Below, in pieces: positions 14,036-38,165 of a stretch of 64,000 nt of DNA; position 1 is the stretch's first letter; every line of letters starts with the position of its first letter. The position numbers and the translations under genes are program-made. The stretch comes from an uncultured Microthrixaceae bacterium (GTDB taxonomy: Bacteria > Actinomycetota > Acidimicrobiia > Acidimicrobiales > DATDAH01): positions 123,843-187,842 of the forward strand of contig CAWJSC010000017.1 in the NCBI GenBank assembly GCA_963845425.1. Direction: 5' to 3'. A model generated the notes under the pieces. It was not told the DNA's origin. It was given only the letters and a program-made list of their open reading frames with translations, and ran no database searches.

Positions 14036-15376
14036 ATGAACATTCGTCTACGAGCACTGATCGCGGTCGCCGCGGTCATCACGATGGTTGCGGTCGGCCT
14101 GACGACGGGCGGCGGATCCGATGCGGGCGCGACGTCCGGTGACCTACAACCGCCGGAGGGATGCATCGACGTCAGTCCGGAGACCGGCGAGGTCGTCTAC
14201 AGCTGCACGATCCGAGGCCGGGCTTCTGCGCCTGCACCTCGGAACCTCCGACTACTTCCGGTTCGAGCCGGTGGGCCCCAGGACCGATCAACCAGGCGAT
14301 CAGCACCTCCGGTTGCCGGGCGACCCTGGCCACGGCGAACCGACTGGTGACCCTCACCCCCGGTCCGTCCGGAGCGACGCTCGGGCAGCGACGGGACAGC
14401 CTCGGGACCCAGTTCAACGAGGGGAACGGCGAACCGTGCGCCCAGGTCAACAACACGGGTACGAACGGTCAGAGCCTGGTCCTCTCGCTCGGCTCCGGCA
14501 TCGGCGTCGACGGCGCGCTCGTGGACTGGGCCGAGATCGATTTCGAACGCAAGTACGACGGTGTCGTCCGAGCCCAGTTCTTCGCGGGCGGCCCGCAGGG
14601 AACGTCGGTCGGCGAGCTGCTCCTCGGCTGCTCCGCCACCCTCAGCGACTGCGGGCCGGACTCCGGCGACGGTGACAACTTCCGGCTCGACACCCAGAAC
14701 CCGCCCGGCGGCCAGCCCTCGCCGGAGCCGTTCGACACGATCGTCCTCAGCCTCGACGCCTCGGGCCCGTCCAACGGGGCGTTCTCCCTCGAGGGCGGGG
14801 CCGACGGCACCGCACCGGGACCGGTCGGCTCGACCCTGTCGGTGAACCCCAACGACTCGCTCTTCCACGTGATCACCCGCGAGACGATCACCTACGACGG
14901 GACGCTCGACTGCACCGACACCGCCACCGTCGACGTGCCGAGCGACCCGGAGAGCCCGGCCACGAGCTCCACGCGTCACCCGTATGGAGAACAAGGACGG
15001 CGGCTGCGCGCTCGTTCCCTACACCCTCGAGGCCGGGTACGACGGCGACGGCGAGCAGACGGTGGACTTCATCGTGGACCTGACCGGCCAGGCGACCGCC
15101 GAATTCGAGTGGCGCGTGGAGTGGGACCCCGAGCCCGCCACCTACCCGCTCACCAAGACGACCTCGATCGACTTCGGTGACGGCCCCAACCCGTTGCAGT
15201 GGTGCGGCGGCACCTATGACCCCGACGGGGCCACGCCCGACGACCGGATGGCGGCCGTCGTCCCCATCAGCGGGTTGAGCGGGTGCCTCGCCTACCAGCA
15301 GCAGGTCCTGACCGGCGGCCAGGTCCAGGTGACCGAGGTGCTCCTGCTCAGCGACGACCCACGCGTGTCCCGCTAG
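14036..15376 (+). pseudogene. Secreted protein of unknown function, reading frame broken at least 3 times
   Basis: GGAAGGGA SD followed by ATG 14036. Signal peptide MNIRLRALIAVAAVITMVAVGL. High-GC3 coding signal hops frames at about 14205-14215, 14285-14295 and 14955-14983. The pieces fall in track ORFs 14000.., 14121.., 14161.. and 14984... The joined product has Cys pairs and no family I recognise. Confidence 0.55.
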
Positions 15377-24364: not shown

Positions 24365-26693
24365 ATGACCCAGCCCCGGACGGTGCCCACCGGCACCGGC
24401 CCCATGAGCGAACCGCGCGGCGTGATCGTCTGGGCCCTGGCGGGCGTGGCCGCGGTGGGGACGGTCCTCGCGGGCGCGGAACCGACGGCGTCGCCCGTGA
24501 CCGACGTCCTGGTAAACGGGGCGGTCACCGTGCTCGTGGTCGTCCTCTCCTCGCGGGCGAGCCCGTGGACATGGGTCCTCATGGCCGGCGTGGCCGCGGC
24601 CGGAGCCGACGGGCCCGGCCCGACCCTGGCCGGGGTCACTGCCCTCGTGGGCGCCTTCGCGGCGATCGCCTTCGACCGCCACGACCGATTCATCGGTGCC
24701 GCCGTGGGCGCCCTCGCCGTCCAGGGGCTGTTCCGCCTACCGGGGTGGGAGCCCCAGGGTCTGGCCACCGCGATGGCCGTGGCCGCCGTCGTCCCGGTGC
24801 TCGTCTCGGGCTTCCGGCGCAGCGAGGCCACCGTGCGCCGTCGTCTCGCCGTCGGAGCCGTCGTCGCCACCGTCGTCGCGCTCGCGTGCTCCGCTCTGGC
24901 CGTGGTGGTCGCCGTCGGGCAACGCTCGACCCTCCAGGAGGGCATCGACCGGGCCCGCGCCGGCCTGCGGGCCGCCGAAGCCGGTGACACGGGCGAGGCC
25001 ACGACGCTGCTCCGCGAGGCCGAGCGGGCGTTCGGGGACTCCGCCGACGCCCTCGGGGCCCCCTGGATGGCACCCGCGGCGGCCGTCCCCGTGGTCGGCC
25101 AGAACGTGGATGCGCTGGCGGTCGCGGCCGAGCAGGGCACCGAGCTCGCGGCCACGGCTGCCGACGCGCTGGTCGACGCCGATCTGGAGGAGCTGCGGTT
25201 CGACGACGGCGTGCTGGACCTCGAGCAGGTCGCGTCGTTCGGGCCCCCGCTGGACCGGTCGGCCACCGCGCTGCACGCCGCCCTCGACGACCTCGCGGCG
25301 GTGAACTCGTCGTGGCTGCTGCCGCCGGTCGGGGACCGGTACCGCACCTTCAGCGCGGAGCTGACCGATGCGGCCGCGGATGCCGAGGTGGCCGTCGAGG
25401 CCGTCGCCCTGGCCCCCGCACTCTTCGGCGGCGAGGGCGATCGTCGGTACCTGATCCTGTTCACCACACCCGCCGAGATGCGGGGCCTGGGCGGATTCGT
25501 GGGCAACTACGGCGAGCTCACCGCGGTCGACGGCGACGTCGAGCTCACCCGCTCCGGTCGCGTCAACGACGTGAAACCCGCCGTCGGCGCCCCCCCGTGG
25601 ACCATCACCGGCCCCGCCGACTACGTCGAGCGTTGGGGTCGGTACGAGGTCGGGAGGTACGTGCAGGACACGACGTACTCGCCGGACTTCCCCTCGGTGG
25701 CCCAGGTCTGGGAGGAGATGTACCCGCAGATGCCGGGCGGGGGAGCCGTCGACGGCGTCATCGTCGTGGACCCTTACGCCCTCGCCGCTCTCATGACCTT
25801 CACCGGCCCCATCGTGGTCCCCGGTTACGACACACCGCTCACGTCGGAGAACGCGGCCGACATCCTCCTCCGCGAGCAGTACCTCACCTTCGCCCAGGAC
25901 AACGAGCAGAGAATCGACTTCCTCGACGACGTGACCCGCCTGACCTTCGAGGCCCTCACCACCGGTGACCTGCCCGGGCCCAGAGAGGTCACCGAGGTCC
26001 TCGGGCCCATGGTCGCCCAGGGGCGGTTGCTGGTCCACAGCGTCACGCCGGGCGAACAGGACTTCTTCACCGGGATCGACCTCGACGGCGCCCTGCCGGA
26101 GGTCGACGGCGACTTCCTCTCGGTCACCACCCAGAACTCCGGCAACAACAAGATCGACATCTTCCTCCACCGCCGGATCCGCTACGACGTCCGCTACGAC
26201 CCGGACACCGGTCGGGTGGAGGCCGATGTCACGGTGACCCTCCGCAACGACGCACCGGCGTCCGGCCTGCCCAACTACGTGATCGGGAACCGGGACACCA
26301 CCCGGATCCCGCCCGGAGCCAACCAGATGTATCTCTCCGTGTACACACCCTGGGACATCGTCGACGCCACTCTCGGTGGGCGACCCATACCGGTCGAACA
26401 CGCCGAGGAGCTCGACCGTTTCGCCTACGCGCACCACCGTGCAGGTCCCCTCCGGCGGAACGAGGACGCTCGAGTTCCGCCTCCTCGGCTTCACTGATCC
26501 GGCCGTCGACTACCGACTGACGTTCGCGCCGCAGCCCCTCGTCCACCGCGACGACTTGACCGTCTCCGTGGAGCCCGCCGACGGGTGGTCGGTGTGTGGC
26601 GTCGACGGTTTCACCGACGACGGTTCGGGAGCGGGGGTGACCGTCGAGCCAGAGGAGGACGCGAGATGGACGGTCGAGTTCTGTCCTCAGTGA
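24365..26693 (+). CDS. DUF4012-like membrane-anchored protein (one apparent frameshift near 26425-26440)
   Basis: AGGAG SD. N-terminal TM helices. Conserved-looking RYLILFTTPAEMRGLGGFVGNYGEL and DGVIVVDPYALAALM. The C-terminus continues in the frame of track ORF 26376..26693 (TTVQVPSGGTRTLEFRLLG...EFCPQ*). The DUF4012 assignment is from memory of the family signature. Confidence 0.7.
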
Positions 26694-26712
26694 CGTCGCC
26701 CGCCTTACATGC

Positions 26713-26742
26713 TTGCGCCGGCCCCCGTCGAACCGCTACAGT
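26713..26742 (+). promoter_or_regulatory. Possible sigma70-type promoter for the LPXTG mini-protein gene
   Basis: TTGCGC, an 18-nt spacer, then TACAGT, within a locally low-GC stretch 28-57 nt upstream of ATG 26770. Pattern match only. Confidence 0.25.
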
Positions 26743-26769
26743 AACTGAAAGTCCTTGGGAGGGAATCCA

Positions 26770-27072
26770 ATGAAGAAGCTCATTCTCGGTGGTGCGATAG
26801 TCCTGTTCGCCCTGCTCGCCTTCAGCGGGTCGGCATCGGCCCAGGCCGTTGGCCAGGTCTACTGCGGCCCGACCGTCGGGTACGCCGACGTCTGCCCTGA
26901 CAACATCGAGCGCCCCTCTGGCGACGTGGATCCCGCCGCGGTCGCCGCCCTGCCCCGGACCGGTTCCGACAGCAGCATGCCATTGGCCCGTGCCGCCGTC
27001 GTGCTCATCGGTGTCGGCGCCGCGATGACGATCCTCGCCAATCGTCACCGCCTCCAGCGCGTCCCCTCCTGA
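26770..27072 (+). CDS. Small secreted protein with C-terminal LPXTG-type sorting signal
   Basis: GGGAGGG SD 6-7 nt before the ATG. Signal peptide MKKLILGGAIVLFALLAFSGSASA. Mature region of about 45 aa contains CGPTVGYADVC. This is followed by LPRTG, a hydrophobic stretch (AAVVLIGVGAAMTIL) and a basic tail (NRHRLQR). Confidence 0.7.
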   Translation: MKKLILGGAIVLFALLAFSGSASAQAVGQVYCGPTVGYADVCPDNIERPSGDVDPAAVAALPRTGSDSSMPLARAAVVLIGVGAAMTILANRHRLQRVPS

Positions 27073-27215
27073 ACCTGGCCACCGTCCCGGTGGCAACCAC
27101 ATCGCCCTAGCCGGGTGGTACCGGTCCCCCGTTCGCGCGGCTGATTCGGGGCTGCGGTCGAGCCGGGGTCGATCCGACGGCTCGATCGACGGCACCCTGA
27201 CCCCCCGTTGATCGG

Positions 27216-27834
27216 TCAGGCGGCGGTGGTCGCCGGGCCGGTGCCGACGTGGCGCTCGTGGCGCTGGGTCACGAACCGGAAGAGGCGGAGGCCCTCGGGC
27301 CAGGCGCGGGGGCCGCAGACCGGCCTTGAGCCAGAGGTGGTCGAGGAAGTCCTCGGGATGAGGGACCTGCTCCCAGACGCTGGGGAGGAACAGGCCCCGG
27401 CGCCGGCCGGCCTCGACCACCAGGCCGTCGTGGCCGGGGCGCAGGACCTCGAGGAGCTCGGTCCGGGACCGCACCGGGACGGGGGTGAGCGGCGACAGCA
27501 GCGACAGCTCGATGGTCAGGTGCGCACGATCCTCCGGGCGCAGGGCAGGTAGGCGGGGATCCTCGAAGGCGGCGGACAGGGCCAGGCGGGCGACGGCGTG
27601 GCCCAAGGGCTCGTGACCCTCGATCGTGCCGATGCAGCCGTTGAGCCGGCCGGCGACGGTGAGGGTGACGAACGCCCCGGTCGGCCGGTGCAGTTCGTCG
27701 GGCAGGGACCCCAGCGCCGGCAGGGCCAGGGGTCGGCCGGCCAGTGCGTCCTCCAGGGTCACCGCCGCGATGTCGAGCAGCGCCTCGGCCTCGACCGGCG
27801 AGACGGCGGGCTCAGGTGAGGGCGAAGGATCCAT
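27216..27834 (-). CDS. AMMECR1-domain protein (AmmeMemoRadiSam system protein A type), one apparent frameshift at a C/G homopolymer at about 27300-27312
   Basis: ATG 27834: MDPSPSPEPAVSPVEAEALLDIA...GAFVTLTVAGRLNGCIGTIEG...RGLFLPSVWEQ...LWLKAGLRP. The sequence then continues in another frame as WPEGLRLFRFVTQRHERHVG...*, with its stop at 27216. The start overlaps the Memo gene by 23 nt. Confidence 0.75.
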
Positions 27835-28618
27835 ACCCGACCACCCTCTCCTTGTCGCCGGCGGTGTCGCCGGAGGTCCGCCGGTCGACCTCCTCGACCG
27901 TGAGGTGCCGCTCGTCGGCCACCCGCAGCAGCCCGCGCAGGGGCCGGGCCCCACAGGCGTCCCGGTCGCCGATGACCTCGGGGCGCCGGGCCACGACGGC
28001 GGCCGCCGTGCGGGCGTCGAGGGCCACCGCCTCGTCGTGGCGGTGGTAGTGCGACAGATCGGTGCTGACCACGACGAGGGTCTCGGGCCCGCCCCAGAGC
28101 ACCTCGAGGGCGGCGGCGACCTCCTCGGTGGTGGCGTCGCCCACGACGACGGGGACCAGCGTGATCTCGTCCAGCACGGTCTGCAGGAAGGGGACCTGGA
28201 CCTCGAGGCTGTGCTCGGGGGCATGGGGCCGGTCGTCGACGACGACGAAGGGGAGGTGGGCCAGGTCGTCGGCGGCCGAGTGGTCGACCGGCACGAGGCC
28301 GAGCGGCGTGGCCCAGGCATCGGCGCTGCTCAGGGCCAGCCCCCGGAGGAACATCCGGTGGCTCGGCCCGAGGAGGACGACCCGGCGGATCGACCCGCGG
28401 GCGGGCGCCACCCGGGCGTAGGCACTGGCCGCGATCGGGCCGGAGTAGACGTAGCCGGCGTGGGGCACGACGAGGGCCCGGGGCACGGCGGCGTCCGGGG
28501 CGGGGCGGACGGCCCCGCCGAACGACCGGCGGATGGTCTCGGCCAGCACCGCCGGATCGGCCGGGTAGAAGGCACCCGACACCGCGGCGGGGCGGACGGT
28601 CGTCGGTCGGGTGGTCAC
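27812..28618 (-). CDS. Memo-like protein (AmmeMemoRadiSam system protein B type)
   Basis: GTG 28618 overlaps the radical-SAM stop (GTGA). Motifs: AVSGAFYPADP, VVPHAGYVYSGPIAA, EHSLEVQVPFLQ, STDLSHYH, CGARP. Frame is intact. Confidence 0.85.
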   Translation of the reverse strand: MTTRPTTVRPAAVSGAFYPADPAVLAETIRRSFGGAVRPAPDAAVPRALVVPHAGYVYSGPIAASAYARVAPARGSIRRVVLLGPSHRMFLRGLALSSADAWATPLGLVPVDHSAADDLAHLPFVVVDDRPHAPEHSLEVQVPFLQTVLDEITLVPVVVGDATTEEVAAALEVLWGGPETLVVVSTDLSHYHRHDEAVALDARTAAAVVARRPEVIGDRDACGARPLRGLLRVADERHLTVEEVDRRTSGDTAGDKERVVGYGSFALT

Positions 28619-29724
28619 GGGGTCCCTCGCCGGCCCATGACGACCGGTAGCCGGGTGGTGCCCCACTCCCCGGCGGGGCCGTCGAACACGCCGGGCAACG
28701 TGGTGCCGCAGGTGCCGCAGGCGCCGGCGTCGTCGAGGCCGTAGGCGCCGATCGTGTACCAGTCCCGCTCGATCACCCGGCTGCCACACCCCGGGCAGTA
28801 GGTGCTCTGGCCGTCCGCGTCATGGACGTTGCCCACGTACGGCGTGGCGCACCCCGTTGTCGAGGGCGATGCGTCGGGCCCGGGCCAGGGTCGCCGGCGG
28901 TGTCGGCGGACGGTCGACCAGGCGGTAGTCGGGGTGGAAGGCGGTGAAGTGCATGGGCACGTCGGGACCGAGGTGCTCGACCACCCAGGTGGTCATCTCG
29001 TCCAGCTCGGCGTCGCTGTCGTTGAGGCCGGGGATGAGCAGGGTGGTGAGCTCCAGCCAGACGTCGGTCTCGTGGCGGAGGTACTCGAGGGTCTCGAGCA
29101 CCGCGCCGAGCTCGGCGGCGCAGGTGTGCCGGTAGAAGTCCTCGGTGAAGCCCTTGAGGTCGATGTTGGCGGCGTCGAGGTGACCGAAGAGCTCGGCCCG
29201 CGGCTCGGGGTTGATGTAGCCGGCGGTCACCGCGACGGTGGCCAGGCCGAGGTCGTGACAGGCGTCGGCCACGTCGACGGCGTACTCGAGGAAGATCGTC
29301 GGGTCGTTGTAGGTGAAGGCCACGCTGCGGCAGCCCGAGGTCGCGGGCGGTGCGGGCGATGGCCTCCGGCGACGCTTCGTCGGCCAGCGTGTCGATCTCC
29401 TTGGACTTGGAGATGTCCCAGTTCTGGCAGAACCGGCAGGCCAGGTTGCAGCCGGCGGTGCCGAAGCTGAAGATCGCGGTGCCGGGCAGGAAGTGGTTGA
29501 GGGGCTTCTTCTCGACCGGGTCGACGCAGAACCCGCTCGAACGCCCGTAGGTCGACAGCACGATGCCGTCGCCCTCCCGGCCCCGCACGAAGCACACGCC
29601 CTGCTGGCCGTCCCGCAGCTTGCAGGCCCGGGGGCACACGTCGCACTGGACGCGACCGTCGTCGAGGGTGTGCCAGTGGCGTGGTGGGGACGGTGAAGCG
29701 GTCCACGAGCGGAGAGTCTACCAC
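28615..29724 (-). pseudogene. AmmeMemoRadiSam-system radical SAM enzyme, frame broken 3 times
   Basis: Joined translation: (MVDSPLVDRFTVPTTP)/(HWHTLDDGRVQCDVCPRACKL...GTAGCNLACRFCQNWDISK...ARDLG)/(CRSVAFTYNDPTIFLEY...HFTAFHPDY...ALDNGVRHA)/(YVGNVHDADGQSTYCPGCGSRVIERDWY...). Breaks are near 29676-29685, 29330-29337 and 28838-28848. CxxxCxxC is present. Confidence 0.8.
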
Positions 29725-29957
29725 TAAGGCTCAAGAAACATGAGTGTTATCTTGTCAAGTTTCGACGGTCCCTCGACGAGACGAGCGGCCAGGACGCCAG
29801 CACACCCCCGGAGCAGATCCCGCAGCCGACGCCCGGCTTATGGCCAGCTCGTGCGGTTCCGCGTGGACGACGTCGGGTCTTTCGGCCGTAGGAGGGCCGT
29901 CACCGGCACGGGATGATGGGGGTGTGCCCCGGTTCGCGGGCACGGAAGGAGGTCGAC

Positions 29958-30800
29958 ATGACCTTCCGAACCTCGACATTCCGGTGGGGCGGGCACGAGC
30001 TCGTCTATGACGACTATGGCGATCCTGGCTCGGACGGGGTCCTGGTCTACATCCATGGCCTGATGCTCGACTCGGAGATCAACCGGGGCATCGCCCAGGC
30101 TCTGGCCGATCGCGGCCACCGGGTCGTGCTGATCGACCTGCTGGGCCATGGTCGCAGCGACAAGCCCGCGCACGCCTCCGAGTACCGGATCGACACCTAC
30201 GCCGAGCAGATCGTCGGCCTGCTCGACCACCTGGAGGTCCCGTGCGCCGTCCTCGGCGGCATGTCGTTGGGCGCCAACGTCAGCCTGTTCACGGCCAGCC
30301 GCTACCCGGACCGGGTGGGGGGCCTCGTGCTGGAGATGCCCGTGCTCGAGTGGGCGGTCCCCACGGCCGCGCTGCTCTTCGCCCCGATGGTCCTCGTCGC
30401 GCACTACGGGCGCCCCGTGGTGGCCCGCCTGTCCTCGCTCCTCGCCCGGGTGCCCGACACCCCGATCGGGCCGCTGAACAGCTTCCTGCACGCGGCCTCG
30501 TTGCCGCCCGACAGCCTGGCCGCCCTGCTGCACGGCATCCTCGTCGGGCCCGTGGCCCCCACCGTCGAGGAGCGCAGCGCCATCGGGGCCCCGGCGCTCG
30601 TCCTCGCCCACCGCAACGACCTCATCCATCCCTTCGACGACGCCCACAACCTGGCCCGCCAGCTCCCGAACGGCCGGCTGGAACGGGCCCGGTCACCGGT
30701 CGAGCTGCGGCTGCGGCCTGACCGCCTCACCGACGTGATCGCCACGTTCCTCGACGAGGTCTGGGTCGGCGACGAGCAGGTCGGCACCCGCGCCGGCTGA
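29958..30800 (+). CDS. Alpha/beta-fold hydrolase
   Basis: GGAAGGAGG SD, then ATG 29958. Motifs: VYIHGLM, LLGHGRSDKP, nucleophile elbow GGMSLGA. Confidence 0.85.
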   Translation: MTFRTSTFRWGGHELVYDDYGDPGSDGVLVYIHGLMLDSEINRGIAQALADRGHRVVLIDLLGHGRSDKPAHASEYRIDTYAEQIVGLLDHLEVPCAVLGGMSLGANVSLFTASRYPDRVGGLVLEMPVLEWAVPTAALLFAPMVLVAHYGRPVVARLSSLLARVPDTPIGPLNSFLHAASLPPDSLAALLHGILVGPVAPTVEERSAIGAPALVLAHRNDLIHPFDDAHNLARQLPNGRLERARSPVELRLRPDRLTDVIATFLDEVWVGDEQVGTRAG

Positions 30801-30807
30801 TTCGGCG

Positions 30808-32219
30808 ATGGCCGCCGAACGCCTCAGCGCCCAGGACGCCACCCTGCTCTACGCGCAGGACCAGCGGGCGCCGCTGATCATCGGCGCGGTGTGCCGGTTC
30901 GAGCGGGCGCCGCTGGCCGACGCCGACGGCCGCCTGCGCACCGATGACCTCCGTCGCCACCTGGCCAGCCGCCTGCACCTCGTGCCCCGCTTCCGCCAGC
31001 GGCTGGCCCTCGTCCCCGGCGACTCGGGTCGGCCGCGGTGGGTCGACGACACCGACTTCGACATCCGGAACCACGCCCACGGGGCCCAGCTGCCGGCGCC
31101 GGGCGGGGAGCGCGAGTTGCACGCCTTCGTGGCCGAGCTGCTCGCCGTGCCCCTGGACCCCCGGCGCCCCCTGTGGGAGCTGTGGACCGTCGACGGGCTC
31201 GACGGCGACCGGGTCGCCGTCGTCCTGAAGGTGAGCCACGTGATGGCCGACGGCCTGGCGCTGCTGGGCTTCGCCCTGGCCCTGCTCGACTTCGAGCCCG
31301 ACGTCGCCCCCGTCGAGCCGCCGTCGTGGGTCCCCGAGCCGGCGCCGTCCGGGACCCGTCTGCTGGCCGACACCCTCGTCGACCAGGCCCGGACGTGGCC
31401 GGGGCCGCGGTGGGCGCCGTCCGGGCACTCACCCGACCCGGCCGGCTCGCCGCCGACCTGGCCGCGCTCGGTCGGGCCGCGGCGACCATGGTGGGCCTCG
31501 CTCCTCGTCTGGCGATCAACGGCCCGGTCGGTGACCGCCGTGGCTTCCTGCTGCTGCAGCTCCCGGCGGACCAGTTCCTGGCGGTGAAGGACGCGGCGGG
31601 GGTCACCTTCAACGACGTCGCCCTGACCGTCTCGTCCCTCGCCCTGCACCGCTACCTGGGCGACAAGGGCGGCCATCCCCACGGGACCCGGCCCCGGGTG
31701 CTGGTCCCGGTGTCGACCCACGGCACCGACCCCGCGGGCGAGATCGAGAACCGCTTCTCCCAGATGGTCGCCGACCTGCCCGGCCCGGAGGTGCCACCGG
31801 CGGAGGCCCTGGCCCGGATCCACGCCGCGATGGCCCGCGCCAAGGCGTCGGGCCAGGCCGAGATGGGCCCGCTGGTCTACTCGGTCGCCGCCACCGTGCC
31901 GGGCTGGCTGCTCCGCCGGGTGGCCCCCGTGCTGCTGCGGAACCAGCCGCTCGTGAACCTCGCCGTGTCCGACCTCCCCGGATCGCCCGAACCCCTCCAC
32001 CTACTGGGCGCCCGGATGCTCGACCTGGCGCCCTTCATCACCTGCACCGGGAACCTGGCCCTCATGATCGGCGTGCTGTCCTACGCGGACACCGTCGGCG
32101 TCGGGATCACCGTGGACCCCGATGTCGTGCCCGACGTCGAGGCCTTCGGTGATGCCCTGCGCTGGGCGAGCGGCGAGTTGGCCGACGCGGTTCTCGGGAC
32201 GCCGCGGGCTACCGGCTGA
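30808..32219 (+). CDS. WS/DGAT family acyltransferase, copy 2 (one apparent frameshift at about 31385-31400)
   Basis: N-terminal half in track ORF 30808..31587 (LSAQDATLLYAQD..., SHVMADG). C-terminal half in track ORF 31038..32219 (INGPVGDRRGF...NLAVSDLPGSPEPLHLLGA...). Confidence 0.8.
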
Positions 32220-32277
32220 CGCTCAACCCCGACATGGAGGGCCGACGAGGTGGCAACGGGTATGGACGCCGACCGGC

Positions 32278-32787
32278 TCAACTCGGGTTCGGGAACGCCA
32301 CCGCCGCCAGCGCCACCCGGACCTCGGGGTGCACCTTCACCAGCAGCAGACTCGGTGGCTGGACACCGAAGTCGGTGACGTCGAACTCGGCGGTGCCCCC
32401 GATCACCAGCTCGGCGTCGGCGTTCACGCCCACCGACAACACGCCCTTCAGTGAACGGGTGACACCGTGGAAGTCCAACTCGCCGACACCCTCGTAGCCA
32501 CCGCCTGCGGCGGGGGACAGGGCCGCGAGGCGTCCCATCACCCTCGGATGGCGGCGGACGTTCAGACGGCGCTCGGCCTCACGGTCGAGGAGGGGGTTGC
32601 CCGAGCGCATGCCGCCGAGGTCGAACTCGACCCTCCCGTCGACCGGGGCGTCGGGATCGACACGGCCCTGGGCATCGAGGGCGACGTCGATCCAGCCGGT
32701 CACCGGGGCCCCCGTCGTGATCGGGTGGAGGCTGGAGGAGGCGTGGATCGAGATGCTCGACCGGTTCGGGTCGAGGTGGTGGCGCAT
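32278..32787 (-). CDS. YceI-like domain protein
   Basis: 169 aa. The beta-barrel-like repeat pattern (FDLGGMRSGNPLLDRE..., GELDFHGVTRSL, AEFDVTDFGV) is typical of the YceI family. Confidence 0.8.
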   Translation of the reverse strand: MRHHLDPNRSSISIHASSSLHPITTGAPVTGWIDVALDAQGRVDPDAPVDGRVEFDLGGMRSGNPLLDREAERRLNVRRHPRVMGRLAALSPAAGGGYEGVGELDFHGVTRSLKGVLSVGVNADAELVIGGTAEFDVTDFGVQPPSLLLVKVHPEVRVALAAVAFPNPS

Positions 32788-32829
32788 TGGTGCCAGTGTG
32801 CCGGGGCCACGACCGTGCCGCCCGCCCCA

Positions 32830-34634
32830 TCATCGTCGGCGGCCGACCTGCAGGCCGCCGGAGCGGGCGCAGCGTTTGCTTCGACCGGGTTTCGTCGCCC
32901 TGGCGGGCGGCCCGGCCCGCGGCCCGGCGCTCCCGCAGGCGGCGCCGCGGCAGTACTCCAGCGGGTCGAAGCCGTCGGGGTCGGCCGGGATCGCGGCCGG
33001 GTCGGCCAGCACGGTGCCCAGCATCATCTCCACCAGCAGCGGCCGGTCCAGGATCTCCCCGGCGCAGTGCACGCCGCCGACCATCGTCCCGGCGACGCCG
33101 TGGCCCGACGCGGTGTTGGCGCCCGACCAGCCACAGCCCGTCGATCTCGGTGCGGTGCTGGGGCCGGTTGGTCGCCGGACTGCTCCGGCGAGTGGACGTA
33201 GCCGTAGCTGGTGCCGCCGGTGGAGCGGGTGTAGCGCTCCTGGGACAGCGGCGTGGCGGTCTCGACGTGCACGATGTGGTCGCGCAGGCGCTCGCCGCCG
33301 AGCTGGTCGGCCAGCACCCGCTCGGCGGCGTCGAGCAGCGCCTCGGTGAGCTGCTGCTTGCGCTCCCGGTAGCGCTCGCCGCGGCGGTAGGGGCCGCCCT
33401 CGGCCGGTGACGTCCTCGACGCCCCACCACTCCAGGCCCCGCGGGCGCCAGCGTCATGATCTGCAGGTTGGTCTGCCCGTCGGGCACAGGTGCGGCGTTG
33501 CCGGGGTCCTTGCGCGACGCCATGGCGACGTAGGCGAACACGTCCGGGCCCTCCAGCTCGCCGGCGTCGAGCCCCTCGTAGAGGCCGTCGGTCTCGTAGT
33601 CGGGGAACACGAAGTAGTTGGTGTTCGGCCCGCCGGTGAGGTCGACGTCGACCACCAGGTACACGCACACCAGGCCCAGGGTCATCTCGCGCCTCCCGGG
33701 TCCAGCGCACCGTGGCCGGGTCCCAGTGCTCCTCGCCCACCAGCCCGAACACGGTGCGGGCGTGGTCGGCGTTGGAGATCACCAGGTCGGCGGCGATCGT
33801 CGGTGCCGTCCTCCAGCACCACGCCGGTGGCCCGCCGGCCCTCCACCGACGATCCGCTGCACCGGGGTCAGGGTGCGGACCTCGCCGCCGTGGGCCTCGA
33901 TCACCTGGATCAGCCGGGCCGGGATCATCTGGCCGCCGCCCTCGGGGTAGTAGGCGCCCCGCATGTAGTGGTCGATGATCGACGGCGTGCATGGCCACCG
34001 CCGTCTGGCGGGGGCCGCCGGCGTACAGGCCCGACCAGTGGTCGAGCACCGCCCGGCACCGCTGGGACAGCTCGCCCTCGTCGAACAGCTCCGACAGCGG
34101 CCGGAACGCCCACCGGTCGAAGGTCGGGGTCTCGACGCCGGGGATGGGCCGGGCCCGGCCCTCCTCGGCCACCGCGTCGCAGCGTGCCGACGACCCGCTC
34201 GATGCCGGCCCGCTCCTCGGGGAACGCCTCGACCAGGCGGTCGCGGTAGCGGTCCCAGCCGGCCGGCACCACGAAGCTCCAGGTCCGGGAAGTGCAGCGT
34301 GTCGAACCCGTCGGGGTCGAGCGGCAGGAAGCGCATCCGGTCGCCGACGCCGAGCCCGCCGAAGATCGTGGGGAACAGCCCGCCCGGCCCGCAGTCGCCG
34401 ATGTAGTGCACGCCCACGTCGAACTCGATACTCGGCGCCCTCGTGGTGGCGCGGAACACCTGGGTGTTGCCGCCGGCCAGGTCGTGGCCCTCGAGCACCA
34501 GCACCCGCCGCCCCGCGGCGGCCAGGCACGCCGCGGCGGTCAGCCCGCCGGGGCCGGAGCCCACCACCACCACGTCCCACGTCGTCGGCCACTCCGGCCC
34601 CGGGGCGATGCTCAGCGGCGTGGACTGGGGCCAT
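32830..34634 (-). pseudogene. FAD-dependent oxidoreductase (phytoene-desaturase/CrtI-like superfamily), at least 8 frame switches
   Basis: Recognisable blocks alternate among all three minus frames:
- WDVVVVGSGPGGLTAAACLAAAGRRVLVLEGHDLAGGN
- VVPAGWDRYRDRLVEAFPEERAGIERV
- RPIPGVETPTFDRWAFRPLSELF...HWSGLYAGGP
- IIDHYMRGAYYPEGGGQMIPARLIQVIEAHGGEV
- IAADLVISNADHARTV
- MTLGLVCVYLVVDVDL...AYVAMASRKDPG
- LTEALLDAAERVL...VETATPLSQERYTRSTGGTSYG
- GLWLVG
- MVGGVHCAGEILDRPL
The gene ends are approximate. Confidence 0.65.
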
Positions 34635-34670
34635 GCAGACCAGTAGGCTGGCGGTGCCGCAGGCTGATGG

Positions 34671-35750
34671 CTAGGCGGGGCGGCGCGACGCCGCCGGCGC
34701 CGCTTCGAGCGAGCCTTGAAGAACGAGGCCTCGGCGGCCCGGCCCCCGGCGCAAGGGCTGTCGACCAGCTCGAGGGCGGCCTCCTCGTAGAGGTGCGGAT
34801 GTCGTGCACGGTGCTGATCGGGTCGCCCCCCGGGCAGGCCGGCCTCGGTCCAGTCGGCTCCGTCGACGATGGCGCAGGAGGGCCGACAGCGCATCGGGTA
34901 CCCCGTCGGGCCCGATCACCCTGCCGACCGACGTTCGGCCCCGAGCGGCCAACGACCGGTCATAGGCGTTGCGCAGGCCGCGGGCCTCGTCGACCGCGGG
35001 CGGCAGATCGGGGTCGAACGGGGCGGCAGGGCGCAGGCCATCGGGGTCTCATCGTACTCGAGGACCGTCGGGTGGTCGGCCAGCACCGGCCCGGTCGGCT
35101 CGTCGAGCAGAGCGAAGGCCCGAAGCAGCAGGTCCCGCTGGAAGGCGGCGTCGCCCGGCACGCCCAGCGGGCGGCCCAGGGGGAACTCGCCGTAGAAGGC
35201 CCGGGGCGGGTGCATCCGCTCGGCGACCGAGCGGACCGAGATCAGGGCCACGGTGGCGAGGCCTGACGGCTTCGAACACATGCGAGAGCACACACACGGT
35301 GCGCGAGCAGAGCGGTCAGACGGGGGTGAGCAGCACCACGTCGACGCCGTCGTGACGCAGGTGCCGCGGCGGCGGCCGGCCCGGAGTCCAGGCGGACGGT
35401 GGCCACGTCGTCGGGCTGGTTGCCCGCGAAGGACACGTGGCGGGGGCGACCCGGCCGATGACCCCGTCGGCGGCCAGTTCCTCGAGCCGGTCGATGGGGT
35501 AGACGACATCGAGGTCGGCGGCGAAGGCCGAGCGGTCGAAGTTGGGGCTCCAGTGGCCGAGGGCCAGGTCCCGGCGCTCCCGGTCGAGGAGCCGGAACCC
35601 GGTGTCGAAGCTGGAGAACCCCTCGTCGTCCATCGTGTGGATGGCGGCGGTGGTCACGATGGCCACGGTGGCCTCGGCCAGCGGTTTCGGGGCGGTGAAG
35701 GCCGTGGTGTCGAACTGGGGCACGGGCAGCGAGTCCGACAGGTCCCGCAT
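34671..35750 (-). pseudogene. Glycine/sarcosine/betaine/D-proline-reductase selenoprotein-B (GrdB/PrdB)-family homologue with in-frame TGA (35316-35318) and at least 6 frame switches
   Basis: GGAGA SD, then ATG 35750: MRDLSDSLPVPQFDTTAFTAPKPLAEATVAIVTTAAIH...DGVDVVLLTPV-TGA-PLCSRTV...GLATVALISVRSVAERMHPPRAFYGEFPLGRPLG...VLEYDE...LYEEAALELV. Frame changes fall near 35442-35446 (G/C run), 35365, 35265, 35000, 34870, 34826-34831 (G/C run) and 34785. The 3' end is uncertain. Confidence 0.6.
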
Positions 35751-35996
35751 CGCCTGATCTCCGGTGGTCACCGGAGGAGCTTGGCACACGGGGGAGGGCG
35801 CCCGGTCCGGCCCCTCAACGTGTCGTCGTGCGCACCCTGACCCCGATCATCGCGATACACCGCGAGTCGCGCCGGAGATGGGCCGGGAGGCGCTGAGCCA
35901 TCGCCGTGATCGAGCTGCCGGGCGGCGCGGTCGAGGGGCCGGGGCGAGGGCGGGAAGTACGCTCCGGCGTCCGAGGTGATTCAGACGGAGGACCAC

Positions 35997-37031
35997 GTGC
36001 AGACGTCGATGCGAGACGACCGTCCCCTGGCGCGACCCGGCGCCCGTGTGGGGGCGATCGTGGCCCTGGTGCTCCTCGCGGGTGCGTGCAGCAGCGCTGA
36101 CCGTGCTGAGGGCAACTCGGATGCCGCCGCGAGCTCGACCTCCATGGCTGCGTCCTCGAGCTCCGATAGGCAGACCCCGGAGCCGGTGCAACAGCTCGAC
36201 ATCGACGGCACCGAGTACACCTTCGCCGTGAGCCCCGATCCTTCGGGCGGCCTGCACCCCGGTTGGACCGAGGTGCGGTTCGACAACGTCGGGCATGAAG
36301 CCCATCAGGTGATGTTCGCTCGCCTCAAGGACGGGGTCGACATGGCCGAGTTGGCCGCGGCCGGGGAGGGCGACTCCTCCGGCGCCTCCGCCATCGAGTT
36401 CGTCGACATGATCGGCGGGGTCAGCTACATCGACCCCGGGCGGGACACCTCCGCGTTGGTCGATCTCTCCGAGGGCACGGTGGTGGCGATGTGTTACGTA
36501 CCGAACCCCGACGGGGTGGCCCACGCGCTCCTGGGGATGTCGACGATCCTCGCCGTGCCCCCCGCGGACGCAACGGTCCCGACGACTCCGGGGGCTGACC
36601 CAGCCCCGGCCGCCGCGGGGTCGACGCCGGCCCTGGAGGTCGGTGAGCGAGAGGTCGTCGGCACCATCGAGTTGGCGGCGGAGGGGTATCTCATCCCCGA
36701 CGACCCGGGGCCGGGCTGGTACCACGTCGTGAACACCGACGTCGACGCCCCCGGCGGTGGGCTGCACGAGCTGTCGCTGTTGCGGCTGGAGGGCCCGGTC
36801 GGCCGCGGCGGCATCGACCAGGTCGTGGACGACCTGGCGAACAACATCACCCCGAGTGTGGGGCTCGACGCCGTCGGGGGCATGGGCGCGATCTCCGCCG
36901 GCTTCGACGGGTACCTCTATCTCGACCTCACCCCCGGCGACTACCTCGCAGTGGACTTCATGCCCGATCCTGGTGAGCCCCGCCCCCACATGCTCGACGG
37001 CTACTACGCCGAGTTCAGCGTGGAGGCATAG
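35997..37031 (+). CDS. Lipoprotein of unknown function
   Basis: GGAGGA SD 4 nt before GTG 35997 (alternative ATG 36009). Lipobox LVLLAGAC. Ser/Ala-rich linker, then two similar beta-rich halves. No family recognised. Confidence 0.7.
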   Translation: MQTSMRDDRPLARPGARVGAIVALVLLAGACSSADRAEGNSDAAASSTSMAASSSSDRQTPEPVQQLDIDGTEYTFAVSPDPSGGLHPGWTEVRFDNVGHEAHQVMFARLKDGVDMAELAAAGEGDSSGASAIEFVDMIGGVSYIDPGRDTSALVDLSEGTVVAMCYVPNPDGVAHALLGMSTILAVPPADATVPTTPGADPAPAAAGSTPALEVGEREVVGTIELAAEGYLIPDDPGPGWYHVVNTDVDAPGGGLHELSLLRLEGPVGRGGIDQVVDDLANNITPSVGLDAVGGMGAISAGFDGYLYLDLTPGDYLAVDFMPDPGEPRPHMLDGYYAEFSVEA

Positions 37032-37166
37032 GTCGAGGCTGCAGTCGCAGGCGTCGACCGTGGGCCGGGGCAGACCCCTGCGGCCGAGCCAAGTGGTGAT
37101 GTCGGACCTGGTGTCGGGCGGATCCCGCCGCTCTTCGGCGGAGTCCGTCGAGCGCCGTGCCGTCCC

Positions 37167-38165
37167 CTAAGCCAGGTGGGGGAGGACCTTCTCGCCGTAG
37201 GCGGTCAGGGTCTCGTCCTGGTCGTCGTGTTGGAGGTAGACGGCGAACTGGTCGACGCCCAGGCCCCGGAGCTCTTCCAGGCGCTCGATGTGCGCCGACG
37301 GAGGACCCAGGAGGCAGAAGCGGTCGATGATCTCGTCGGTGACGAAGTCGACGTGCGTCGACGTCGCCTTGCCGTGTTCGGCGTAGTCGTAGCCCTCGCG
37401 GTTCTCGACGTAGCTGAGCAGGGCCTCGGGCACGAGGTCCGTGTCGGCGCCGTAGCGCTTGACGAGGTCGGCGACGTGGTTGCCGACCATGCCGCCGAAC
37501 CAGCGGACCTGGTCCCGCTGGTGAGCCAGGTCGTCACCGACATAGGCGGGAGCGGCCACGCAGACCTTGATCGCATCGGGGTCCCGGCCCGCGTCTGCAG
37601 CCGCGGTGCGCACGGCGTCGATCGTCCACTTCGCGATCTGGGGGTCGGCGAGCTGGAGGATGAAGCCGTCGGCCTGCTCGCCGCAGAGCTTCAGCGCCTT
37701 GGGGCCATAGGCGGCCATGTAGATGTCCAGTGACGACCCCCGGGACCAGGGGAACTGCTGGTCAGCGCCGTTGTAGGACACCGATCGACCCTCGGCCAGG
37801 CCCTTGATCACCGTCATGGCCTCGCCCAGGGTGGCCAGGTTCGACGGGGCGAAGCCGAGCACCCGCATGGCCGAGTCGCCCCGGCCGATGCCGCAGACGG
37901 TGCGGTCCCCGAACATGTCGTTGAGGGTGGCGAACATCGACGCCGTGACCGTCCAGTCCCGGGTCCCCGGGTTGGTGACCATGGGCCCCACCTTCATGGT
38001 GTGGGTGGCGGACAGGATCTGGCTGTAGACGACGAAGGGCTCCTGCCACAGCACGTGGCTGTCGAAGGTCCAGCCGTAGCCGAACCCGAGGGTCTCGGCC
38101 CGCCGGCACAGGTCGACCACCCGCCAGGCCGGCGGGTTGTTCTGCAACACGACACCGAACTCCAT
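37167..38165 (-). CDS. LLM-class (luciferase-like) flavin/F420-dependent oxidoreductase
   Basis: 332 aa from ATG 38165: MEFGVVLQNNPPAWRVVDLCRRAETLGFGYGWTFDSHVLWQEP...GIGRGDSA...YGPKALKL. TIM-barrel LLM signature. Confidence 0.85.
   Translation of the reverse strand: MEFGVVLQNNPPAWRVVDLCRRAETLGFGYGWTFDSHVLWQEPFVVYSQILSATHTMKVGPMVTNPGTRDWTVTASMFATLNDMFGDRTVCGIGRGDSAMRVLGFAPSNLATLGEAMTVIKGLAEGRSVSYNGADQQFPWSRGSSLDIYMAAYGPKALKLCGEQADGFILQLADPQIAKWTIDAVRTAAADAGRDPDAIKVCVAAPAYVGDDLAHQRDQVRWFGGMVGNHVADLVKRYGADTDLVPEALLSYVENREGYDYAEHGKATSTHVDFVTDEIIDRFCLLGPPSAHIERLEELRGLGVDQFAVYLQHDDQDETLTAYGEKVLPHLA

Follow-up and report, generated by a model that had tools for sequence, protein, structure and literature searches.

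The AmmeMemoRadiSam locus

We analyzed a 64,000-nucleotide stretch of DNA (hereafter the window) from an uncultured Microthrixaceae bacterium. Its minus strand carries three genes of the AmmeMemoRadiSam type, which are faced by two genes on the plus strand. The features are as follows, with coordinates given as positions in the window.

28615..29706, minus strand: AmmeMemoRadiSam radical SAM gene; 362 aa after removal of three extra bases, four reading frames as deposited
27812..28618, minus strand: AmmeMemoRadiSam protein B (Memo family) gene; intact, 268 aa, GTG start
27216..27834, minus strand: AmmeMemoRadiSam protein A (AMMECR1 family) gene; 205 aa once one extra base (27316) is removed
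26770..27072, plus strand: LPXTG mini-protein gene; 100 aa, secreted and sortase-anchored (signal peptide, cysteines paired as C-x9-C, LPRTG signal); convergent with the AMMECR1 gene
24365..26693, plus strand: DUF4012 gene; PF13196 match, ~775 aa if intact; private extra base at 26432

The radical SAM and Memo genes share a GTGA at 28615-28618, in which the radical SAM stop codon TGA (28617-28615) overlaps the Memo start codon GTG (28618-28616). A second overlap of 23 nt (27812-27834) extends from the ATG of the AMMECR1 gene (27834-27832) to the Memo stop codon (27814-27812), and the AMMECR1 gene ends in a stop codon at 27218-27216. Both overlaps had been pointed out in the first-pass annotation of this DNA; they are present, and they are also kept in the closely related contigs from other samples described below (sister contigs). 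Judged from the sequence, the start/stop overlaps of 4 and 23 nt are suggestive of translational coupling, and the three minus-strand genes would be co-transcribed. The transcript is probably leaderless, with a putative promoter just 5′ of the GTG at 29706. Scans of the region for Rfam families, tRNAs and promoter/terminator consensus sequences returned no match. An 11-nt inverted repeat is the sole element found in the convergent spacer.

We place the radical SAM start at GTG 29706 because the similarity to all sister contigs ends there, and the product called from this codon has 362 aa. The first-pass annotation had extended the cassette to 29724, where there is indeed an in-frame alternative GTG further upstream, although the conserved start is the one at 29706. 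The same annotation called the gene order canonical, which holds within the Acidimicrobiia clade and not overall. Among 81 Memo-anchored genome loci, the order radical SAM-Memo-AMMECR1 occurs in six and is the usual one only among the closest, Acidimicrobiia-type relatives; Memo-AMMECR1-radical SAM (41 of 81) and arrangements with a divergent radical SAM gene (23 of 81) are commoner. The trio is compact in 69 of the 71 complete Memo-anchored loci, and the window copy is contiguous across 27216-29706.

Family identity and conserved residues

All three proteins match the models specific to the AmmeMemoRadiSam system. With the extra bases described below removed (“corrected”), the radical SAM protein reaches 626.8 bits against TIGR04337, whose cut-off is 220 (positions 1-348 of 349, E = 8e-189). 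The score of the Memo protein against TIGR04336 is 263.3 bits (cut-off 26; positions 1-269 of 270, E = 2e-78), and that of the corrected AMMECR1 protein against TIGR04335 is 176.3 bits (cut-off 99; E = 3e-52). As deposited, the AMMECR1 protein still reaches 161.0 bits over positions 2-158 of 175, and the radical SAM pieces score 192.5, 287.9 and 80.1 bits on TIGR04337. These three large pieces tile positions 16-117, 118-284 and 284-348 of the model without gaps. Pfam matches are to Radical_SAM, Memo (PF01875) and AMMECR1. The HMM check thus bears out the earlier recognition of the AmmeMemoRadiSam trio, with all three models above their cut-offs.

The corrected proteins also retain the residues that define these families. 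The radical SAM protein keeps the CX3CX2C motif (C86/C90/C93), the N-terminal C21/C24/C28/C38 and the C-terminal C303/C306/C329/C332, and all three sets of cysteines are ≥97% conserved among 142 homologues. Near-invariant columns kept after correction number 115 of 115 in radical SAM, 44 of 45 in Memo and 25 of 25 in AMMECR1, and those of radical SAM include residues 3′ of every break. The Memo protein retains the metal-site residues H53, H87, D187, H190 and C222, and the AMMECR1 protein retains C67 of the GCIG motif.

Hundreds of radical SAM homologues with 76-98% identity are uninterrupted proteins of 349-381 aa, and those named by NCBI (76-98% identity, Acidimicrobiales) are designated AmmeMemoRadiSam system radical SAM enzyme. 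The system is also found in Gram-negative bacteria and archaea. The AmmeMemoRadiSam trio is already catalogued and widespread, and the window holds a typical example for its clade.

The frame breaks are private single-base insertions

As deposited, the radical SAM gene has three frame breaks and the AMMECR1 gene one. In a plot of GC content at third codon positions (GC3), the frame switches at ~29680, ~29336 and ~28843 in the radical SAM gene and at ~27316 in the AMMECR1 gene, with Memo uninterrupted, and GC3 holds at 0.95-1.0 over the breaks.

Sister contigs L001, L162 and L163, which come from three other samples, are 98.6%, ~99.2% and 94.5% identical to the window, respectively, and represent different strains that differ by 0.6-5% substitutions. 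In each of them all three genes are intact (362, 268 and 205 aa) and overlap as they do in the window, and the Memo protein of the window is identical to that of ENA contig L001. Synonymous and non-synonymous differences stand at 10:4 against L001 and 16:7 against L162 (pN/pS ~0.15-0.16). The sister assemblies have private breaks of their own in other genes, those of L001 affecting DUF4012 and the peptide gene. P0127 contains a compensated frameshift patch.

We placed the extra bases by base-by-base comparison with L001 and L162. This comparison covers the five bases between 26432 and 29680, the ~9 breaks of a CrtI-family gene lying outside it. Those in the cassette are:

29680, minus strand: private extra base at radical SAM codon 9-10; G on the coding strand, C on the plus strand; absent from L001 and L162
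29334-29336, minus strand: private extra base at about radical SAM codon 124; GG run extended to GGG; absent from L001 and L162
28843, minus strand: private extra base at about radical SAM codon 288 (VRH-P-YVGNVHD); absent from L001 and L162
27316, minus strand: private extra base at AMMECR1 codon 173 (LKAGL-GPRAWPEG); absent from L001 and L162

Together with the DUF4012 base, the five private extra bases (26432, 27316, 28843, 29334-6 and 29680) are the same whether L001 or L162 is the reference, and all five are C on the plus strand. Of the four cassette insertions, just one lengthens a homopolymer. Without the extra base at 29680, the radical SAM N-terminus reads VDRFTVPTTHWHTLDDG, the same as in the sister contigs. 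Once the four cassette bases are deleted, the genes measure exactly 1089, 807 and 618 nt and are free of internal stops. An exact-pattern scan of metagenome contigs over the 28843 site, with either variant allowed, gave no matches.

The breaks are not confined to the cassette. The window has ~17 in total, four in the cassette and ~13 elsewhere, all of them within 14.9-35.5 kb, and nearly all those with a readable direction are +1. None occurs in 1-14 kb or 36-64 kb, and the other ~42 kb of the window is clean. The unrelated genes that are broken encode DUF4012, WS/DGAT, CrtI-family (~9 breaks; gene at 32.8-34.7 kb) and GRDB-like proteins. At least 15 breaks, nearly all +1, fall in six unrelated genes within 9 kb. 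In L001, the segment corresponding to 29.75-37.17 kb of the window is replaced, which identifies it as a strain-variable island. Look-up of the island proteins (an abhydrolase in two start versions, a YceI and a luciferase-like protein) returned no record.

These observations could reflect recent gene loss in this strain: +1 insertions would have disabled radical SAM and AMMECR1, with Memo intact, in a decaying region beside the strain-variable island. The breaks do stand in the sequence as given, and they cluster beside and inside the region in which the strains differ (29.75-37.17 kb, replaced in L001). Moreover, the sister contigs were obtained from other samples and show substitutions relative to the window, so private mutations could have arisen. 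However, the cassette lesions are single extra bases alone, with no nonsense codon, deletion or loss of a conserved residue seen, and a pN/pS of ~0.16 also speaks against decay. The five local insertions are all the same base on the same strand, and the sister assemblies carry private breaks in genes that are intact in the window. Bacterial indels are usually biased toward deletion, so it would be unusual for natural mutation to produce at least 15 mostly +1 breaks across six unrelated genes within 9 kb. We regard recent gene loss as unlikely. Still less likely is that the four +1 insertions are genuine and make this strain a natural knock-out of radical SAM and AMMECR1 with an intact, identical Memo. 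If they were genuine, the system would be dispensable in this lineage and Memo may act independently of both partners.

We give next to no credence to programmed +1 ribosomal frameshifting, by which the breaks would regulate expression of the enzymes. The four shifts do share one direction (+1), but the sites are absent from the three sister contigs and from the hundreds of uninterrupted homologues (349-381 aa), and similar breaks occur in unrelated neighboring genes. We know of no precedent for three programmed shifts within one gene. Given that the sites lack any conservation, this explanation was rejected.

The cassette breaks would instead be single bases added in the assembly consensus, not inactivating mutations, and would lie in a region of poor consensus extending across the strain-variable island and into its flanks. 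Consensus error appears far more likely than gene decay because the insertions are private, the genes of L001, L162 and L163 are intact, no other lesion is present, and +1 breaks cluster regionally in unrelated genes. The window may derive from long reads, to judge only by the contig names of the sister assemblies, which are Flye-style; one homopolymer extension among four cassette insertions does not fit the classic signature of long-read errors. The first-pass statement that two of the three genes are damaged and Memo is intact is accurate for the letters as deposited; as a statement about biology it is not supported, the insertions being private and the sister genes intact. We conclude, with a probability of roughly 0.85, that the locus is an ordinary AmmeMemoRadiSam operon, predicted to be intact in function, from an actinobacterium of the Acidimicrobiia type and that its breaks are consensus errors.

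The convergent LPXTG peptide belongs with DUF4012

The first-pass annotation had raised a possible link between the cassette and the convergent peptide. According to this idea, the cassette would mature the Cys-containing LPXTG peptide by radical SAM chemistry resembling that of RiPP pathways. Peptide and cassette are adjacent and convergent in the window and in L001, L162 and L163, and two cysteines are invariant across the peptide family, which comprises eight protein clusters with 54-100% identity. The cassette locus of L015 also has a downstream LPTTG protein, which is not homologous to the peptide.

Against this, no homologue of the LPXTG peptide was found by tblastn in 160 other cassette loci, and a regular-expression scan for sortase signals near cassettes gave only L015 and chance matches. 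From the peptide side, the gene follows DUF4012 in L162, L163 and L164. The L164 peptide is the most divergent homologue (54% identity), and it has DUF4012 upstream and no cassette within 5 kb. DUF4012 itself is intact in L162 and L163 (775 and 777 aa). The signal peptide and sortase signal indicate that the LPXTG peptide is exported, which also argues against its maturation by the cassette. The radical SAM protein has no significant full-length match to SPASM-type or peptide-maturase families, and the system extends to Gram-negative bacteria and archaea, groups without such sortase substrates. Comparative genomics contradicts the link from both the cassette side and the peptide side; we consider it highly improbable and rejected the peptide as the cassette substrate. 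The LPXTG mini-protein is a real small family that, from its gene context, is part of a DUF4012 unit and unrelated to the cassette.

The cassette has no other recurrent companion either. In an all-against-all comparison of 3109 flanking ORFs from 160 loci, no family occurred in more than 14 loci. The top flanking families reflect betaproteobacterial housekeeping synteny (PgpA, CinA, NusB, ThiL, RibBA and IspD, names assigned by reading representative sequences). A conserved neighbor besides the cassette itself, on which the first-pass annotation had made its account depend, is thus not seen across these loci.

Comparison with known systems and predicted function

The window locus shares with other AmmeMemoRadiSam systems the full-length matches to three models above their cut-offs, contiguous and overlapping genes and the family-invariant residues. 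It differs in having the radical SAM gene first, a minority order (6 of 81), and in the four extra bases; biologically, it differs in nothing. The radical SAM core with its CX3CX2C motif (residues ~75-240) resembles those of the PflA/NrdG activases (PFLA, E = 5e-13; NrdG2, E = 1.6e-12), and it aligns with the PflA structure (PDB 3C8F/3CB8) at E = 4e-6. However, the protein falls below both family cut-offs (48.9 versus 231.75 bits for PFLA and 47.2 versus 131.15 bits for NrdG2) and adds the invariant C21/C24/C28/C38 and C303/C306/C329/C332 motifs. No glycyl-radical enzyme partner was found among the genes examined at 14-37 kb, so that neither the family score nor the partner enzyme of a glycyl-radical activase is present.

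With the radical SAM maturases of RiPP pathways (SPASM/RRE), the protein shares the superfamily core alone. The cassette has no conserved precursor gene, and the peptide encoded next to it is exported as a sortase substrate and goes with DUF4012. The search for a SPASM, twitch or RRE domain in the radical SAM protein gave only marginal matches to the core (ScmF, PqqE and StsB; E ~0.003-0.006, 16-17 bits), and no SPASM-type family matched the corrected protein at E ≤ 0.001. Thus, neither the conserved precursor nor the accessory domain expected of a RiPP-type system was detected.

The window Memo protein matches the MEMO1 structures in fold and family (E = 1.5e-19), with the metal-site residues conserved. 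The AMMECR1 protein matches archaeal AMMECR1-type hypothetical proteins of known structure (PH0010, MM0484 and ST0229; E = 4e-21 to 8e-18), including the GCIG cysteine. In contrast, eukaryotic MEMO1 and AMMECR1 are separate genes, studied for signaling and metal homeostasis.

In the literature searched, we found no experimental characterization of the AmmeMemoRadiSam system and no established enzymatic reaction for any member of the MEMO1 or AMMECR1 families, and the relatives of the three proteins in the PDB have no functional names. This agrees with the first-pass description of the biochemical function as not known. Burroughs et al. in 2019 reportedly described contexts related to nucleotide bases and to isoprenoids for the system. 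Other work predicts modification of an RNA base, with the AMMECR1 cysteine taking part (PMC2034487, PMC4075521).

A mechanism can be proposed from knowledge of the families, and it rests wholly on such published predictions and on conserved residues. The radical SAM enzyme has a PflA/NrdG-related core and, in addition, two invariant motifs of four cysteines each; it would initiate radical chemistry by reductive cleavage of SAM. Memo, in which the His/His/Asp/His/Cys metal site is retained, may perform a metal-dependent redox step, and the invariant GCIG cysteine of AMMECR1 may be a carrier or transfer site. The trio would jointly modify a substrate common to many lineages, predicted to be an RNA or nucleotide base or an isoprenoid.

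Implications

The AmmeMemoRadiSam trio being catalogued and widespread and this copy typical of its clade, the locus has little biological weight of its own. It offers no new handle on the role of the system, as it has no informative conserved neighbor. The 9-kb patch of +1 consensus errors beside the strain-variable island has a more general consequence: the “pseudogenes” of the window should not be counted as gene loss, and any observation of gene decay or frameshifting at 14.9-35.5 kb deserves the same suspicion.

Identity and coding layout of the cassette

Scored on the frame-joined proteins, the three system-specific NCBIfam models were matched over nearly their whole length.

Radical SAM, frames joined: TIGR04337, 626.8 bits (cut-off 220), model positions 1-348 of 349
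Memo: TIGR04336, 263.3 bits (cut-off 26), model positions 1-269 of 270
AMMECR1, frames joined: TIGR04335, 176.3 bits (cut-off 99), model positions 2-173 of 175

With all three above cut-off at full length, the first-pass identification of the trio as AmmeMemoRadiSam holds. The Pfam matches are Radical_SAM, Memo and AMMECR1. The three large fragments of the deposited radical SAM line up end to end along TIGR04337 (positions 16-117, 118-284 and 284-348), and thus represent a single split gene rather than several. Among 5.8 billion proteins searched, hundreds of radical SAM relatives were found (349-381 aa, 76-98% identity); those that NCBI names come from Acidimicrobiales, Ilumatobacteraceae or Microthrixaceae and are labelled "AmmeMemoRadiSam system radical SAM enzyme". 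For Memo, the nearest genome locus belongs to an Ilumatobacteraceae MAG (64% identity). We conclude that the cassette is a typical copy of a known system.

29706 (GTG) to 28617-28615 (TGA), minus strand: radical SAM gene
28618 (GTG) to 27812 (TGA), minus strand: Memo, a single unbroken ORF of 268 aa
27834-27832 (ATG) to 27218-27216 (frame-corrected stop), minus strand: AMMECR1, starting 23 nt ahead of the Memo stop

The G+C content of the window is ~72%, making the signal at the third codon position very strong. On the GC3 frame plot the coding frame jumps near 29680, 29336 and 28843 in the radical SAM gene and near 27316 in AMMECR1, and no jump was seen along the whole of Memo. The radical SAM stop overlaps the Memo start in GTGA at 28615-28618. 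Together, the ORF list, the sequence and this plot confirm what had been described before: gene pieces on the minus strand at 27216-29724, overlaps, frame breaks and an intact Memo. The cassette edge moves from GTG 29724 to GTG 29706, the conserved radical SAM start.

By eye, no Shine-Dalgarno-like sequence precedes GTG 29706, either in the window (29707-29760) or in L001, a sister contig from another sample (8868-8915). TAGACT lies 8 nt ahead of this start in the window and TACAAT lies at 7 nt in L001. Together, these features suggest a leaderless operon transcript. No consensus promoter or terminator was found in 26.6-29.95 kb. The 143-nt convergent spacer between AMMECR1 and the neighboring peptide gene contains an 11-nt inverted repeat (CGGTCGAGCCG / CGGCTCGATCG, 12-nt loop, 27155-27188), possibly a terminator hairpin serving both genes, though it lacks a T tract.

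Conserved residues and proposed function

Besides the CX3CX2C motif, the radical SAM enzyme contains two more invariant motifs of four cysteines each, and its core has the PflA/NrdG activases as relatives (E = 5e-13 and 1.6e-12; PDB 3C8F at E = 4e-6). Memo retains its metal-site residues and AMMECR1 retains the GCIG cysteine. AMMECR1 has been suggested to act through its conserved cysteine, transferring a group in an as yet uncharacterised modification of an RNA base (PMC2034487; repeated in PMC4075521), and was still termed functionally uncharacterised in a 2026 preprint. Our literature search found no experimental function for the AmmeMemoRadiSam system, and relatives in the PDB were only MEMO1 and hypothetical AMMECR1-type proteins. 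Burroughs et al. are said to have widened the AMMECR1 prediction in 2019 to nucleotide-base and isoprenoid contexts. As a working mechanism, the three enzymes would form a small-molecule or RNA modification pathway; any assignment of its substrate is tentative.

Gene order and the neighboring peptide gene

Among Memo-anchored loci, 41 have the order Memo-AMMECR1-radical SAM, 23 have a divergent radical SAM gene, and only six, all Acidimicrobiia-type, have the order radical SAM-Memo-AMMECR1. The radical SAM-first order predominates in the closest radical SAM relatives. The constant core of the cassette is Memo followed by AMMECR1. Clustering of 3109 flanking ORFs from 160 loci revealed no neighbor family in more than 14 loci, and the top families reflect ordinary betaproteobacterial synteny. 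Across these loci the cassette thus has no conserved neighbor of any kind, the outcome that the first-pass annotation itself named as refuting, here for the peptide idea.

24365-26693, plus strand: DUF4012 gene
26770-27072, plus strand: LPXTG peptide gene

The peptide ORF is a real gene from a small family (~100 aa, 8 clusters, 54-100% identity). Its members combine a signal peptide with an LPRTG sorting signal, a membrane anchor and a basic tail, and share two invariant cysteines spaced C-x9-10-C; the family motif is QAVGQ..CGPTVGY.DVCPD...LPRTG. No Pfam or NCBIfam family scored above cut-off, and no source gave an informative name. The gene is always directly 3′ of a co-directional DUF4012 gene, in the window, in two further sister contigs (L162 and L163) and in L164, the locus of the most distant member (54% identity). 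These four loci share a conserved two-gene unit (24365-27072, plus strand, in the window) of DUF4012 (~775 aa) followed by the 100-aa mini-protein.

Within 5 kb of the L164 peptide, radical SAM, Memo and AMMECR1 were sought and none was found. Peptide homologues were also absent from 80 Memo-anchored genome loci and 80 radical-SAM-anchored metagenome loci. We therefore interpret the adjacency of cassette and peptide as lineage synteny, and reject the proposed peptide-radical SAM link. The peptide is not a plausible cassette substrate, being exported, whereas the system is cytoplasmic and also found in proteobacteria and archaea. The surroundings of cassettes were also scanned for sortase-substrate motifs, and the only protein to emerge was an unrelated T/P-rich LPTTG one where a contig ends (L015).

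Sister contigs and the extra bases

Three contigs from samples other than that of the window carry the same locus.

L001: ENA ERZ25039524 contig_411, 98.6% identity to the window
L162: ERZ25039597 contig_30116, ~99.2% identity, same flanking genes
L163: ERZ25039600 contig_4825, 94.5% identity

In L162 and L163 the genes are called at 362 aa (radical SAM), 268 aa (Memo) and 205 aa (AMMECR1). L001 agrees for Memo and AMMECR1; its radical SAM was called at 401 aa from an upstream start, and is 362 aa if read from the conserved GTG. The 4-nt and 23-nt overlaps and the tight packing are kept in all four contigs.

Base-by-base alignment placed one extra base in the window at each of 29680, 29334-29336, 28843 and 27316 in the cassette, and at 26432 in the DUF4012 gene. 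All five are an additional C on the plus strand and are missing from both L001 and L162. Once the four cassette bases are removed, the ORFs measure exactly 1089, 807 and 618 nt and contain no internal stop. Of the columns conserved at ≥97%, the corrected proteins keep 115/115 in radical SAM (142 homologues), including residues downstream of every break, 44/45 in Memo (127) and 25/25 in AMMECR1 (37). Synonymous differences outnumber non-synonymous ones by 10 to 4 against L001 and 16 to 7 against L162 (pN/pS ~0.15-0.16). Given full-length ORFs, retained columns and mostly synonymous differences, the cassette damage amounts to the four extra bases only.

A patch of frame breaks across a strain-variable island

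Coding frames were traced across the whole window with a codon-position Viterbi census, and the ends of coding segments were then compared with stop codons; this gave ~17 frame breaks. All lie within 14.9-35.5 kb, at least 15 of them within 26.4-35.3 kb. Within 1-14 kb and 36-64 kb (~36 coding segments) no break was detected. Almost every break is +1 (one base too many).

14161-15376: secreted-protein ORF, break at 14984
3′ end of the large cyclase/AAA/TPR gene: break near 15600
DUF4012: one break
AMMECR1: one break
Radical SAM: three breaks
30808-32219: WS/DGAT gene, one break; its halves are the catalytic then the C-terminal domain, in order
~32790-34720: CrtI-family FAD oxidoreductase, ~9 breaks
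34916-35789, minus strand: GRDB-like gene, one break

The stitched CrtI-family product gives one continuous match to TIGR02734 positions 174-488 across the junctions.

The patch coincides with a strain-variable island plus the adjoining flank. Lying immediately upstream of the cassette, the island (29.75-37.17 kb; 29755-37175) is exchanged for other genes in L001 (2612-8900). The window, L162 and L163 encode an alpha/beta hydrolase and WS/DGAT here, and the window island continues with YceI, CrtI-family and GRDB-like genes and a 351-aa secreted protein. L001 has TrkA_N/RyR, a TIR_2-domain protein, a VWA protein and several hypotheticals, a set that looks defence-type.

The GRDB-family gene (PF07355, positions 203-345 of 347) has a TGA at 35318-35316 that coincides with the model end. 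Past it the frame reads TPV-[TGA]-PLCSRTVCVLSHVFEA, a U-x-x-C-like redox motif, and a hairpin is predicted for a 71-nt stretch that spans the TGA and continues past it (-25.8 kcal/mol, z = -2.3). In this Acidimicrobiia-type genome the TGA may encode selenocysteine. About 55 nt beyond it, a further +1 break joins ORF 34916-35509.

Assembly artefact or gene decay

The breaks are only +1 insertions of a single base type and strike six unrelated adjacent genes; nonsense codons, deletions and losses of conserved residues are all absent. This combination would not be expected under decay, and we infer, with a probability of about 85%, that the breaks are consensus errors. Real mutation private to the window's strain is unlikely. 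Weighing slightly against consensus error, just one of the four cassette insertions lengthens a homopolymer run. Thus, the breaks reported in two of the three genes are present in the sequence, but most probably reflect assembly rather than gene damage.

L001 has its own private breaks in genes intact in the window, in the peptide gene and twice in DUF4012. In P0127, a peptide homologue on an 855-kb ENA contig, an out-of-frame patch (RPTWIPPRSPPCPGPG) replaces the conserved DVDPAAVAALPRTG, a compensated indel pair that fits assembly-level indel noise in ENA-source data.

Any pseudogene calls inside the patch (26400-35300, plus 14984 and ~15600) are suspect.
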